Source: an uncultured Chloroflexia bacterium (lineage in GTDB: Bacteria; Chloroflexota; Limnocylindria; Limnocylindrales; CSP1-4). Taken from it: a stretch of 64,000 bases of DNA. Position 1 is the first letter of the stretch, and each line of letters starts with the position of its first letter. Positions 13,319-23,631 of the stretch are shown one piece after another. The stretch is from contig OY970218.1 in the NCBI GenBank assembly GCA_963713975.1, positions 1,024,001-1,088,000 on the forward strand, written 5' to 3'. Under the pieces are notes generated by a model that was not told the origin of the DNA, ran no database searches, and worked only from the letters and a program-made list of their open reading frames with translations. The position numbers and the translations under genes are program-made.

Positions 13319-16311
<2,993 letters not shown>

Positions 16312-16327
<16 letters not shown>

Positions 16328-16950
16328 CCCGCGGCGTCCGACTCCTGGTGCGCGTCATCCTGCTCGGGGGCCTGGTGGTCGCCGTCGCGGCCTGCGTCGC
16401 GACCATCCTCGTCTGGCAGCAGGGCGACCGTGACGAACAGCGACCCGCCGATGCGATCGTGGTGCTGGGGGCCGCCCAGTACGACGGCCGGCCGTCTCCG
16501 GTCTTCGAGGCTCGGCTGGACCACGCCGTGAACCTGTGGCACGCCGGCCTGGCCAAGGCGTTCGTGGTCACCGGTGGCAAGTTGCCCGGCGACCGCACGA
16601 CCGAGGCGGCGGTTGCCCGCAGGTACGCGATCGAGCACGGGGTGCCCGCGGAGGCGATCTTCGGTGAGGATCAGGCCCACAACACGCTGACGTCGCTGGC
16701 CGCAGTGGCGGACGAGCTCCGCGCTCGAGGCATGGACAACGCGATCTTCGTGTCCGACCCGACCCACATGCTGCGCGTCCTGTGGATAGCCGATGACCTG
16801 GGCATCGATGCGTATGGTTCGCCGACGCCAACCTCGCCGGTCCAGCACGACCTGCTGCGCCGCGCCCAGGCCACGATCCACGAGCTCGGTGCCCTGGCCG
16901 TCTATCTCCTCACCGGCGACAGCCCACAGGTGGAGCAGGCCGGCGGCTGA
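16312..16950 (+). CDS. YdcF/DUF218 family membrane-anchored protein
   Basis: ADAIVVLGA, RLDHA, VTGG, VSDPTHMLR. Start uncertain (GTG 16312 or 16348). Confidence 0.85.
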
Positions 16951-17276
16951 CGCCCGTCATCCTCGGTTGGGGCCACATCCGCGGACCCCATGGGGCCTCC
17001 CGATATCGGCCATGTCCGTGCCCGATCCGGCACCGTTTCCGTGAACGATCACGGAACTTCGGCCCAGGATGGGCCGAATCTGGACGAAGTCCCCGAAAAA
17101 GACGCCCGAAACCCAGTCTGCCCTCTTGGAATGCGTCGAATCGGCCCCTGATACTCGGAACCAGTCTTCCGCCCCCAGGGACCGGCGCCGTCGCCCATGA
17201 GTCGCCCCGAATGCTCTCGGCGCCCCGTCCCGAACCGTCACCTCCTTCGACAGCGGAAGACGAGGAGAGAGGGACT

Positions 17277-17501
17277 GTGAAGCAGGCCGAGGAAGCCCAG
17301 TTCGTGGATCTGATCGCTTGCGAACGGGACTGCCGGTCATGCAGTTATGCCGCGGCACTCGACTGTGACGGCAACTGCGGCGTCTGCACCCACAACTCCT
17401 ACTGCCCCTGTGTGAACCCCGTCGTCGCCCGGAGCAAGACCGCCCTACGGCTGATCGAGCTCCGTCCGATCCTGCTCCAGGACCTCCGGGTTCGCGCCTG
17501 A
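17277..17501 (+). CDS. 74-aa Cys-rich hypothetical protein (8 Cys, two CxxxCxxC motifs)
   Basis: GAGGAG SD, GTG start and high GC3; its TGA overlaps the prfB ATG (TGATG). Confidence 0.7.
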   Translation: MKQAEEAQFVDLIACERDCRSCSYAAALDCDGNCGVCTHNSYCPCVNPVVARSKTALRLIELRPILLQDLRVRA

Positions 17502-18623
17502 TGGACGCCGCGTCCATCCGCGACCTGGCCGAGCGGATCCGGTCGACCTCGGGGCGTCTTTGACCTAGCCGCCAAGGACATCCGCGTCGCGGAGCTTGAC
17601 GCCCGCGCCATCGAGCCCGGCTTCTGGGACGACCAGCGAGCCGCCCAGAAGGTCGTCCGGGAGGCCGAGGGCCTGCGCGATGAGATCACGCTCTGGCGAT
17701 CCCTGGAGAAGCGCGCCGACGACCTCGTCGAGCTGGTCGACCTGCTCGCGGACAGCCCCGACCCGGACACCGAGCGGGACGTCGAGCGCGAGGCAGACAC
17801 GCTGCGTGCCGAGTTCGAGCGGGAACGCACGCTGCTGCTGTTCTCCGGCGACTACGACGCGAAGAACGCCGTCCTGACGATCAGCGCCGGCGCCGGTGGC
17901 ACCGAGGCCACGGACTGGGCCGAGATGCTCCTGCGGATGTACCTGCGCTGGGCGGAGCGCCACCGCTTCAAGACCGACATCGTGGACTCGCAGGAAGGTG
18001 AGCAGGCGGGGATCAAGAGCGCGACCGTGACCGTGACCGGCCGCTTCGCCTATGGATGGCTGCGCCCGGAGCGCGGCGTGCACCGCCTGGTCCGGATCAG
18101 CCCCTACGACGGCCAGAAGCGGCGCCAGACGACGTTCGCCCTGATCGAGGTGATGCCCGAGGCGGACGAGGACGTGGCCATCGAGCTCAACTGGGACGAG
18201 ATCCGCACGGACACCTTCCGCTCGTCCGGCGCCGGCGGCCAGCACGTGCAGAAGACCGAGTCCGCCATCCGGCTGACGCATGTCCCGACCGGCATCGTGG
18301 TCTCGTGCCAGAACGAGCGATCCGCCACCCAGAACCGCGAGATCGCGATCCGCGTCCTCAAGTCCCGGCTGCTCGAGCTGGAGCTGGAGAAGCGCGAGGA
18401 GGAGCTGCGCAAGTTGCGCGGGGAGCACGTGACGGCGGGCTGGGGCAACCAGATCCGGTCCTACGTCCTGCACCCGTACCAGATGGTGAAGGACCTCCGG
18501 TCCGGGCATGAGACCTCGAACACCGGGGCCGTCCTGGACGGCGACCTGGACCCGTTCATGCAGGCGGAGCTGGAGCGCCTTGCCACCGGACGGCCGCCGT
18601 CCGCGGACGCCGACGACGAGTAG
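17501..18623 (+). CDS. prfB: Peptide chain release factor 2, with programmed +1 frameshift
   Basis: MDAASIRDLAERIRSTSGRL, then CTT-TGA-C, continuing DLAAK...FWDD...GAGGTEA...RISPYD...GAGGQHV...WGNQIRSY. Confidence 0.96.
17551..17564 (+). promoter_or_regulatory. RF2 autoregulatory +1 frameshift site (GGGG-CGT-CTT-TGA-C)
   Basis: Canonical internal SD, 3-nt spacer and CTT TGA C. Confidence 0.95.
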
Positions 18624-18627
18624 GCTC

Positions 18628-19620
18628 GTGGCCGTCGCCGATCGCCCGGCGTACCGGCCCGGCCGCGAAGCGGACCTGGACGGCTGCGTCCGCACCTGGC
18701 GCCTTGCGACGGAGGACTACCTGGTCCGGCTGGGGCAACCGCCGCTGCCCGAGGACACCGCACCCCTGCGCCGGATTCTGGCCCACTCGATGGCAACCGA
18801 CCCGGACCGCTTCTGGGTGGCCACCCTGGACAACGAGGTGGCCGGCTTCTCGTCCGCAACCGTCCGCGAGGGCCTCTGGTTCCTGGCCATGCTGTTCGTC
18901 CGGCCGGACCTCCAGGCGCGCGGCGTGGGCAGGGCGTTGATGGACCGCGCCCAGGCGGGACGCGACGTGGATCCGGGAGGCCCTGCCGTCCCCGGCCCCG
19001 ACGATGCCTTCGACACGGGCATCCACACCTGGGGCATGGCCGCGGATTCGGTCCAGCCGATCTCCAACGCGCTCTACGCCAGGCGCGGGATGGTGCCCAG
19101 GATCCCCGTCTGGCGGCTGCTGGGCGAGGTCAGGCGGTGGTCCGCGCTCCCGCAGCTTCCCCGGTCCCTGGAGGTCGTGCGGCTCGATGGCCCGGCCCCC
19201 GGGAGCGGGGACGGCTGGCAGCCGCAGGACGACGTCGTCGACGAGCTGGATCGCGAGGTGGTGGGATCAGCGCATCGGGTCGATCACGAGTACCTGCGGC
19301 GTGACGGACGCACCGGGTTCCTGGTACGGGATCGCGGCAGCGGACGAGCCGTCGGGTACGCGTACGGGTCGGGGGGCGGGCGCATGGGCCCGATCGCCGC
19401 GGTCGACCCCGATCTGCACCCGGTGCTGGCCGGCGTTGCGATCCGCGAGACGCCGGCCCTCGGCACCGTGGCGCTGTGGGTCCCGGGCCCTGCCGATCGG
19501 ATGACCCGCGCATTGCTCGACGCGGGCCTGCGTTTCGACGGGTTCCCGGGCCTCATCTGCTGGTCACGCCCGGATCACCCGTTCGATCGCTACCTGCCGA
19601 TCTCCCTGGCCCTGATCTGA
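18628..19620 (+). CDS. GNAT family N-acetyltransferase
   Basis: LFVRPDLQARGVGRALM acetyl-CoA motif; tandem GNAT layout. Confidence 0.85.
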   Translation: MAVADRPAYRPGREADLDGCVRTWRLATEDYLVRLGQPPLPEDTAPLRRILAHSMATDPDRFWVATLDNEVAGFSSATVREGLWFLAMLFVRPDLQARGVGRALMDRAQAGRDVDPGGPAVPGPDDAFDTGIHTWGMAADSVQPISNALYARRGMVPRIPVWRLLGEVRRWSALPQLPRSLEVVRLDGPAPGSGDGWQPQDDVVDELDREVVGSAHRVDHEYLRRDGRTGFLVRDRGSGRAVGYAYGSGGGRMGPIAAVDPDLHPVLAGVAIRETPALGTVALWVPGPADRMTRALLDAGLRFDGFPGLICWSRPDHPFDRYLPISLALI

Positions 19621-21494: not shown

Positions 21495-22880
21495 ATGTCC
21501 CCCGATCCCACACCCGCCGGGGAGCCCGCCGACACGACCCCGGTCGAGCCCGTGCCCGAGCCCGCTCCTGTGCCGACCCTTCTCGCCGAAGGAGGCGCCT
21601 CCCCCACGCCATCACGTCCGGGCCGGCGCACCGGCGTCGCGATCGTGGCCGGCGCCATCATCGCCGTGCTGGCGGGCGGCGCCCTGTTCTTCTCCGGCCT
21701 GACCCTTGGCCGCCAGGCGGCGCTCACGCCGGGCACCCCGGTGAGCGAGGCGGAGGCGTTCCAGCCGTTCTGGGACACCTACCGGGCCGTGACCGAGCGC
21801 TACGCCGGCGGCGAGGTGGACCGCAAGGCGGTGATCGAGGGCGCGATCAAGGGCATGATCGACGCCCTCGGCGATCCGTATTCCCGCTATCTCACGTCCG
21901 ACGAGTTCAAGGCCAGCCTGGAGGGGATCTCCGGGGAGTTCACGGGGATCGGGGCAACCATCGGGACCGTGGACGCCACCGGCGCCACGTCATCCTGCAC
22001 GGACCTGTCCCCTGACTGCCGGATGGTCATCGTGGCCCCGATCAAGGGCTCGCCCGCGGACAAGGCCGGCCTGCGCCCGGGCGACGCGATCACGGCGATC
22101 GACGGCGTGACCGTGGACGGCCAGCCCCTGGACGAGGCCCGGATGAAGGTCCGCGGCCCCAAGGGGGTACCGGTGGTGCTCACGATCGAGCGCGACGGCG
22201 CGACGCCCATCCAGATCGAGGTGGTGCGGGACGTGATCGTCACGCCGGATGTCGAGACCCGGGACCTCGCTGACGGAACGGTTGGCTACATCCGGCTGTC
22301 CGGCTTCTCCGATCACGGTGCAGAGGAGTTCGACCAGGCGGTCGTCGGCAACGTCAAGGCCGGGCGGACGAAGCTGATCCTGGACCTGCGCGGCAACCCG
22401 GGCGGGTTCGTGACCGCGGCCCGCGACATCGCGGGCCAGTTCCTGGCCGACGGCACGATCTTCTGGCAGGAGGACGCGGACGGGAACCTGGTCCAGACGG
22501 TCGCGACGCCTGGTGGTGCGGCCACCGACCCGGCGATTCGGCTGGCGGTGCTCGTCGACGGCGGGACGGCATCGGCGTCGGAGATCGTGGCCAGTGCCCT
22601 CCAGGACCGCGGGCGTGCGGTGCTGGTCGGGTCCACGACGTTTGGCAAGGGCACCGTCCAGCAGTGGACCCAGCTCGAAGACGACACCGGCGGCTTCCGG
22701 CTCACGATCGCCAAGTGGCTGACGCCCGACAAGACCTGGATCCACGGCAAGGGGATCACCCCGGACGTCGTCGTGGACGCCCAGCCGGCGAAGCCCGGCG
22801 ACGACCCGGTCCTGGACGCCGCGCTCGAGAAGCTGGGCGCTGCGACGACCGGCGCCTCGGGCCCCCGCGCGACGGCCTGA
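21495..22880 (+). CDS. S41 family C-terminal processing protease (CtpA-like)
   Basis: LGDPYS, PDZ domain, LDLRGNPGG, TASASEI, TFGKGTVQ. Confidence 0.93.
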   Translation: MSPDPTPAGEPADTTPVEPVPEPAPVPTLLAEGGASPTPSRPGRRTGVAIVAGAIIAVLAGGALFFSGLTLGRQAALTPGTPVSEAEAFQPFWDTYRAVTERYAGGEVDRKAVIEGAIKGMIDALGDPYSRYLTSDEFKASLEGISGEFTGIGATIGTVDATGATSSCTDLSPDCRMVIVAPIKGSPADKAGLRPGDAITAIDGVTVDGQPLDEARMKVRGPKGVPVVLTIERDGATPIQIEVVRDVIVTPDVETRDLADGTVGYIRLSGFSDHGAEEFDQAVVGNVKAGRTKLILDLRGNPGGFVTAARDIAGQFLADGTIFWQEDADGNLVQTVATPGGAATDPAIRLAVLVDGGTASASEIVASALQDRGRAVLVGSTTFGKGTVQQWTQLEDDTGGFRLTIAKWLTPDKTWIHGKGITPDVVVDAQPAKPGDDPVLDAALEKLGAATTGASGPRATA

Positions 22881-23172: not shown

Positions 23173-23631
23173 ATGGGCGACACGATCGCCCAGAACCGAC
23201 GAGCACACCACGACTACAGCATCGAGGACACCTTCGAGGCTGGCATCGTGCTGCGTGGCACCGAGATCAAGAGCATCCGCGACCACAAGGTGAGCCTCGC
23301 GGATGCCTACGCGCGCATCGAGCGCAACGAGGCCTGGATCATCGGTCTCCATATCGCTCCCTGGGGCACGGCAGACGTCCGCTTCAACCACGAGCCCAAG
23401 CGCGCCCGGAAACTGCTGCTGCACCGCCGCGAGATCGACGAGCTGCTGGGCAAGAGCAAGGCCAAGGGCCTGACGATCGTCCCGCTCCGGATCTACCTGT
23501 CGCGGGGCCGGGCCAAGGTGGAGCTGGGACTCGCCCGTGGCAAGCAGACCTGGGACCGGCGGCGCGAGATCGCGGAGCGCGATGCGAAGCGGGACATGGC
23601 GCGCCAGGTCGCCGAAGCGCGCAAACGCTAG
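23173..23631 (+). CDS. smpB: SsrA-binding protein SmpB
   Basis: IAQNRRAHHDY, EAGIVLRGTEIKS, RKLLLHRREI, RGKQTWDRR; GAGGAG SD. Confidence 0.97.
   Translation: MGDTIAQNRRAHHDYSIEDTFEAGIVLRGTEIKSIRDHKVSLADAYARIERNEAWIIGLHIAPWGTADVRFNHEPKRARKLLLHRREIDELLGKSKAKGLTIVPLRIYLSRGRAKVELGLARGKQTWDRRREIAERDAKRDMARQVAEARKR

Follow-up and report, generated by a model that had tools for sequence, protein, structure and literature searches.

A conserved cysteine-rich mini-ORF immediately upstream of prfB in Limnocylindria: a putative metalloprotein and a probable case of translational coupling

The mini-ORF, its signals and its neighbours

The stretch of DNA analysed here (the window, 64,000 nucleotides, 70% GC) carries a small open reading frame, the mini-ORF, immediately upstream of prfB, the release factor 2 (RF2) gene; the features of the locus are collected in Table 1. 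A preliminary description had drawn attention to a 74-residue product with a CERDCRSC-x7-CDGNCGVC-x5-CPC signature, and the pattern of cysteines matches exactly: C15-x3-C19-x2-C22, x7, C30-x3-C34-x2-C37, x5, C43-P-C45. Cysteine takes up 8 of the 74 codons, no two of them adjacent. The GC content at the three codon positions (0.66/0.47/0.82) follows a coding pattern, and the last of these values bears out what had been said of the third position. Length and GTG start are identical in 31 same-genus loci; the choice of start is supported by two relatives (L013 and L031) whose open frame has this very codon as its first. The Shine-Dalgarno (SD) sequence of the mini-ORF, which had been called good, is so by calculation: over 51 loci the anti-SD duplex energy averages -8.9 kcal/mol (range -12.4 to -6.4), beyond the 5th percentile (-8.2) of a background of 820 windows with a mean of -3.6, the anti-SD string used for these energies being a consensus and not the host's own 16S rRNA sequence.

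Table 1. Features of the mini-ORF/prfB locus (positions within the window)
Feature	Position	Strand	Details
secA	13319-16327		upstream of mini-ORF
DUF218 gene	16279-16950		between secA and mini-ORF; followed by a 326-nt gap
Promoter-like element	17126..17155	+	TTGGAA 17126-17131, N18, GATACT 17150-17155; in relatives TTGG..-N17-TATACT
Mini-ORF SD tract	17262..17274	+	purine-rich; conserved GAGAGAGGGA-type tract in 31 same-genus loci
Mini-ORF	17277..17501	+	GTG start, 74 codons, 8 invariant Cys, TGA stop 17499-17501
TGATG stop/start overlap, mini-ORF/prfB ORF0	17499..17503	+	last A of TGA is first base of ATG
prfB ORF0	17501..17563	+	ATG 17501-17503; 20 codons, then in-frame TGA
RF2 programmed +1 frameshift cassette	17551..17564	+	GGGG 17551-17554, 3-nt spacer, CTT TGA C 17558-17564
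prfB +1 frame body	17562..18623	+	353 aa and stop; PCRF and RF-1 domains; TIGR00020, E 4.7e-109

The prfB of E. coli is a textbook case of autoregulation through a programmed +1 frameshift, and that of the window belongs to this kind: a short ORF0, an SD-like element and CTT TGA C are followed by the RF2 body, read in the +1 frame. The GGGG, the 3-nt spacer and the CTT TGA C that follow a short ORF0 are all shared with prfB of the E. coli type. ORF0 comprises 20-22 codons across loci, and CTTTGA lies 49-72 nt past the mini-ORF stop in every one of 31 same-genus loci and in 20/20 loci drawn from the three families in which the mini-ORF was found (f1, f3 and f4).

When the 230 nt upstream of 40 f1 loci are aligned with MAFFT, the only invariant or near-invariant blocks are CTTGG and ATACT, 17 nt apart and about 120-150 nt upstream of the mini-ORF start. 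The element of Table 1 may thus be the promoter of a mini-ORF/prfB operon; a promoter/terminator scan flagged nothing in the window, the element scoring 8 of 12. The 5' untranslated region that it implies is about 110 nt long, and within it, about 40-50 nt before the start, lies a partly conserved CGTCCCGAAC....CGTCAC-type block. An Rfam search of positions 16500-18000 returned two chance-level matches only. Four metatranscriptome runs, from four studies, yield contigs that resemble the window at 85-99% and cover the mini-ORF, and in 7 records the contig crosses the junction at position 17501 by more than 31 nt in both directions. These records are consistent with co-transcription of the mini-ORF and prfB in relatives, though they are assembled contigs of relatives, with unreadable transcript ends, from RNA libraries that can contain DNA. 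Run shares were small (0.15 or less), and no inference about habitat or strain is drawn from them. Gaps in their cover over 17000-17271 are uninformative, since the upstream sequence of the relatives differs.

Gene order is secA, DUF218, mini-ORF, prfB and a GNAT gene in f1, and secA, mini-ORF, prfB in f3; in f4, secA and DUF218 are both missing within 1.5 kb of the mini-ORF. The upstream neighbours thus vary by family, and only the link to prfB is constant. In the window the cluster runs secA, DUF218, mini-ORF, prfB, GNAT, ftsE, ftsX, a 461-aa ORF (21495-22880) and smpB, the last at about 23185-23613 (contig 1047185-1047613), 4.5 kb downstream. The GNAT-domain ORF as listed (18508-19620) shares 116 nt with the 3' end of prfB, and its true start probably lies further downstream; GNAT follows prfB only in f1. 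Only two loci with an RF-1 domain were found in the window's own genome, with no third, ArfB-like one. The other locus, outside the window (C1:1328232-1328565), is presumably prfA; its Pfam positions 2-31 and 32-116 fall in different frames, which could reflect an assembly indel or a real frameshift. Neither the mini-protein nor its genome yields a match to ArfA (PF03889).

Constraint on the mini-protein and the reach of its family

Comparison of relatives confirms, as far as sequence can, that the mini-ORF is a real gene under strong purifying selection. Variable columns fall 14/8/54 on the three codon positions of 31 aligned same-genus loci, in which all 8 cysteines are invariant while their codons switch between TGC and TGT. 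A dN/dS near 1, which had been named in advance as grounds for abandoning the mini-ORF, is far from the NG86 median of 0.09 over 465 pairs (maximum 0.29; median dS 0.43). The four other reading frames of the same DNA return 2.0-4.3, and the codon-aligned antisense frame 0.20. High-GC windows are rich in long spurious ORFs (e.g., minus-strand 16957-17517 and 17399-17830), and the mini-ORF might have been a chance ORF of the same sort, with its conservation owed to an RNA or DNA element or to a gene on the opposite strand; the dearth of synonymous change in a few of its codons would fit. The distribution of variable columns, the abundance of synonymous change and the low ratio in the mini-ORF frame relative to the other five speak against such an origin, which has next to no probability and is regarded as refuted. 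The overlapping minus-strand ORFs are themselves spurious, because both dN/dS and the codon-position pattern favour the mini-ORF frame.

Among 91 unique sequences (from 107 usable loci among L001-L111) synonymous change is found along most of the mini-ORF. Codons 46-50 (17412-17426) and 53-54 (17433-17438) show almost none while their neighbours vary freely; codon preference or a short nucleotide-level element could account for this. That the 3' half of the mini-ORF forms an extended RNA structure was considered and dropped, since most codons vary synonymously in the same sequences.

Measured from six residues before the first cysteine to the end, identity of the mini-protein to that of the window is 86-92% within f1 (RF2, 65-73%), 54-59% in f3 (RF2, 56-60%) and 43-44% in f4 (RF2, 49-53%). 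A 74-residue protein that is kept as tightly as RF2 or tighter is therefore no mere spacer. In an alignment of 28 sequences from the three subfamilies, the eight cysteines and I13, E16, Y24, L28, D31, G32 and P44 are invariant; the last residue before the stop is variable.

The same three subfamilies (f1, f3 and f4) emerge from the HMMER matches and the genome loci. The f1 proteins have 74-75 residues, like that of the window. Those of f3 (97-108 residues) share the first residues, mostly Met-Lys-Gln, and then carry a Pro-rich insert of 25-35 residues, and the f4 proteins, of 65 residues, start only six residues before the first cysteine. HMMER, run exhaustively against 1.84 billion representatives, returned 60 matches at E <= 0.001. 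Among 61 related genomes searched, 33 of the 36 of the same genus have the mini-protein (89-99% identity), and the three that do not are 60-82% complete. In a draw of 401 genomes from the phylum, 42 match, the window's own genome counted: 23/23 in f1, 16/16 in f3 and 2/2 in f4. The remaining 359 of the 401 gave no match, among them family f2 of the same order (0/4); the 24 f2 genomes among the 61 related ones, which are streamlined (1.0-1.4 Mb), contained no credible match either (0/24; best E 0.0046). The gene is single-copy, and no unlinked copy was found in the 61 related genomes or in the 401-genome draw. Loci in named metagenome-assembled genomes number 337, mostly titled Limnocylindrales, Limnocylindria or Chloroflexota. 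Among 80 named loci the titles are Candidatus Limnocylindrales/Limnocylindria, Chloroflexota and 'Chloroflexia', with three odd ones (one Verrucomicrobiia and two Anaerolinea-type). Among the genomes searched with these queries, then, the family appears to be restricted to the class Limnocylindria.

No established family claims the mini-protein. Pfam and NCBIfam gave no family for it (one chance-level match, at E 0.28), Pfam gave none for any of the 28 aligned members, a profile search of the PDB with the family produced matches at chance level only (E >= 0.63), and in the ESM Atlas the sole matches were unnamed clusters of the protein itself. Where sources name it at all, it is a 'hypothetical protein'.

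Three metagenome singletons carry an f4-type mini-ORF in a fused form: in frame with prfB ORF0 (P0172), joined to the RF2 body (P0175), or joined to an unrelated C-terminal stretch (P0166). They were set aside as Rosetta-stone evidence, being single-member clusters on contigs of 546-726 bp where a length is given, and are probably sequencing errors or chimeras. A real fusion of the mini-ORF to RF2 would be informative.

The two CxxxCxxC triads and the CPC pair supply eight ligands, enough for two Cys4 sites as in other Cys-rich metal modules, and the eight cysteines probably form two such metal sites. Zinc would be the likeliest metal, with an Fe-S cluster as the alternative. CxxxCxxC or HxxxCxxC spacing also occurs in other Cys-rich modules such as the ZAS anti-sigma zinc motif; radical SAM enzymes, which have CxxxCxxC, are partial TIM barrels of a few hundred residues with SAM-binding motifs, and clostridial-type 2[4Fe-4S] ferredoxins have two CxxCxxCxxxCP motifs. 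None of the 28 members matches the Pfam models of the radical SAM, ZAS or ferredoxin families. A radical SAM enzyme was rejected on size as well, 74 residues being far too few, and a 2[4Fe-4S] ferredoxin on spacing, CxxxCxxC twice and CPC instead of CxxCxxCxxxCP, and for want of a Fer4 match. As the sequence reads, with no segment resembling a signal peptide, the protein should be cytosolic. Its predicted pI is about 6.5; the C-terminal third holds several Arg and Lys residues, and the tail, which varies from one subfamily to another, is weakly basic. AlphaFold2 gave no usable model (mean pLDDT 51.7 with 28 sequences, 45.1 with 48), and a predicted complex of the RF2 body, the mini-protein and two Zn scored 0.00, which was counted neither for nor against binding.

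The mini-ORF/prfB junction

In 51/51 loci examined, from f1, f3 and f4, the mini-ORF stands immediately upstream of prfB. A check of homology and synteny had been proposed at the outset, and homologs in all three families indeed keep both the cysteine spacing and the adjacency; the same-genus genomes are close kin, so that locus counts are not independent events, and the three subfamilies represent three deep comparisons. The shared base of the mini-ORF TGA and the prfB ATG, noted in the preliminary description, is confirmed at 17501, and in 49/51 loci the mini-ORF stop and the prfB start overlap or are directly adjacent. Relative to the first base after the stop, the prfB start is offset by -1 (a one-base overlap) in 35 loci, by 0 (abutting) in 6 and by -14 in 8 (7 by script, and L126 by homology); the remaining two have +5 and +9. 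In 8/9 of the f3 loci (L114-L126), ORF0 starts at a TTG that lies 14 nt inside the mini-ORF end. ATT was rejected as the f3 start, since reading from a conserved in-frame TTG three codons further upstream gives RF2 back its conserved Asp-Ala N-terminus.

The prfB start codon is GTG in 33 of the 51 loci, TTG in 9 and ATG in 9. No obvious SD sequence had been seen before prfB in the window, and this holds across the families: the mean anti-SD duplex energy before the prfB start is -3.8 kcal/mol over the 51 loci, about the same as the background mean of -3.6. The mini-ORF ends in TAG in 35 loci, in TGA in 8 and in TAA in 8. The UGA of the window had been singled out as an RF2-dependent stop; it is not conserved, and RF2-dependent termination of the mini-ORF is therefore not the selected feature.

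Outside the three families prfB is arranged differently. In f2 (L132-L136), which has neither mini-ORF nor DUF218, prfB follows secA at 60-84 nt and keeps CTT TGA C, and an SD-like GAGGG (-7.4) precedes it in 3/5 genomes. In another class of the phylum a recognisable frameshift cassette was found in 28/30 loci, and no coupled Cys-rich ORF was seen. Nine of the 28, with a 22-codon ATG ORF0, have SD energies of -5.9 to -12.2 (7/9 at or below -6.8), the choice of start codon in these loci being crude.

Stop/start overlaps of the ATGA/TGATG type are a general and common form of translational coupling. As in known coupled cistrons, and as expected of a termination-reinitiation pair, the mini-ORF and prfB overlap by a base or abut, and the downstream gene has no ribosome binding site of its own. 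What departs from the usual case is that the downstream cistron is a release factor gene with its own frameshift control and that, in 8/9 f3 loci, the overlap extends to 14 nt with a TTG start. The departure from prfB of the E. coli type is that the Limnocylindria ORF0 has no SD and begins, mostly at GTG or TTG, on the stop of a conserved, protein-coding upstream cistron. Because the overlap is conserved, the prfB start is weak and without an SD, and the SD of the mini-ORF is strong, conserved translational coupling of the two genes is, by these comparisons, well supported, and prfB initiation in Limnocylindria appears to depend on the upstream cistron.

Proposed mechanism, alternatives and significance

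The preferred reading, to which we assign a probability of roughly 0.6, is that the mini-ORF and prfB make up a two-gene operon, coupled by re-initiation, and that the mini-protein is a putative metalloprotein acting in trans. The mini-ORF would be the first cistron, with its own conserved promoter-like element. Ribosomes would load at its strong SD, translate the mini-protein, terminate where its stop overlaps or adjoins the prfB start, and begin anew on this weak, SD-less start; from there the usual +1 frameshift at CTT TGA C would determine how much RF2 is made. The mini-protein would be made in amounts at least equal to the number of ORF0 initiations. Re-initiation is, we infer, the main route into prfB, and if ribosomes do re-initiate from the mini-ORF stop, RF2 synthesis in Limnocylindria would thereby be tied to mini-ORF translation. 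The weakest step in the preferred reading is that the mini-protein may act in trans on something tied to RF2 or to termination. Homologs of known function were not found in Pfam, NCBIfam, the PDB or the ESM Atlas; streamlined f2 lacks the gene, so that RF2 can do its work in its absence; stop and start are separated by 9 nt at one locus and by 5 nt at another; and a common operon is no proof of a common function. A more specific version is unlikely: RF2 would have a partner peculiar to the class, a cofactor of termination or ribosome rescue that senses metal or redox state, and the two would be made in fixed proportion because only ribosomes fresh from the mini-ORF could translate prfB.

An alternative is that the mini-protein is a small metalloprotein, zinc-finger-like or ferredoxin-like, whose role has nothing to do with RF2 and which shares a promoter and ribosome loading with prfB for the sake of constitutive expression. 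This is possible but doubtful. The lack of similarity to any translation factor or RF2 partner in Pfam, NCBIfam and the PDB fits it well, as do the absence of the mini-protein from f2, where prfB stands alone, and a predicted pI that is unlike that of typical ribosome-binding proteins. A gene so placed for convenience would hardly be expected, however, to adjoin prfB in all loci of three families, nearly always with overlap or abutment, while its other neighbours change, nor to be single-copy with no unlinked copy found in the genomes searched. A far less probable account makes the mini-ORF a cis-acting leader, its peptide devoid of function and entry into prfB gated by transit through Cys codons or by termination at UGA. 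The conserved coupling and the cysteine content suit this account. Amino-acid-sensing leader peptides, though, have runs of the regulatory codon in an otherwise weakly conserved peptide, and the mini-ORF has neither: Cys codons never stand side by side, strong purifying selection acts on the whole peptide, which has seven invariant residues besides its cysteines, and both the stop codon and the residue before it vary. A pure Cys-sensing leader, an idea raised in the preliminary description, is unlikely, identity within f1 exceeding even that of RF2.

Improbable as well, if a shade less so, is an RF2-dependent accessory factor peculiar to the class, either an ArfA/BrfA-like rescue factor or a redox- or metal-sensing modulator of termination. 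The mini-protein is small, taxonomically restricted and tied to prfB, several basic residues lie in its C-terminal third, and its genome has SmpB but no ArfA match and no ArfB-like third RF-1 locus that could be found. Yet it has no similarity to ArfA, its tail has little basic character and varies among subfamilies, and the mini-ORF has a stop codon, needed for coupling, at all loci. Factors of the ArfA/BrfA type are made from truncated, stop-less mRNAs, so that trans-translation represses them, whereas the mini-protein comes from a normal mRNA with an in-frame stop (51/51 loci). An ArfA-type rescue factor was accordingly rejected as an identification, on the mRNA and on the missing PF03889 match. 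The mini-protein further differs from ArfA, BrfA and ArfT in being Cys-rich, with a putative metal-binding core, and in sharing an operon with prfB. What it has in common with them is small size and restriction to a lineage; their own tie to the release factor is functional, all three being small rescue factors that recruit RF2 (PMC6881298, PMC6299226, PMC8012679).

The classical frameshift cassette is known already, and coupling by stop/start overlap is common. A literature search at the level of abstracts found no paper that describes the mini-ORF, nor any account of its Cys8 family or of prfB initiation that hangs on a conserved coding cistron upstream.

At the least, these comparisons define an unannotated, strongly constrained family of small proteins. 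In Limnocylindria, which are abundant uncultured Chloroflexota of soil and sediment, prfB has no ribosome binding site of its own and appears to hang on the mini-ORF. If the coupling is as proposed, RF2 synthesis would have a second point of control, itself conserved. A mini-protein with an effect on RF2 or the ribosome would count as a new translation factor specific to its lineage; and should it prove to be a partner of RF2, a protein layer, with a possible metal or redox input, would be added to the RF2 autoregulatory circuit.
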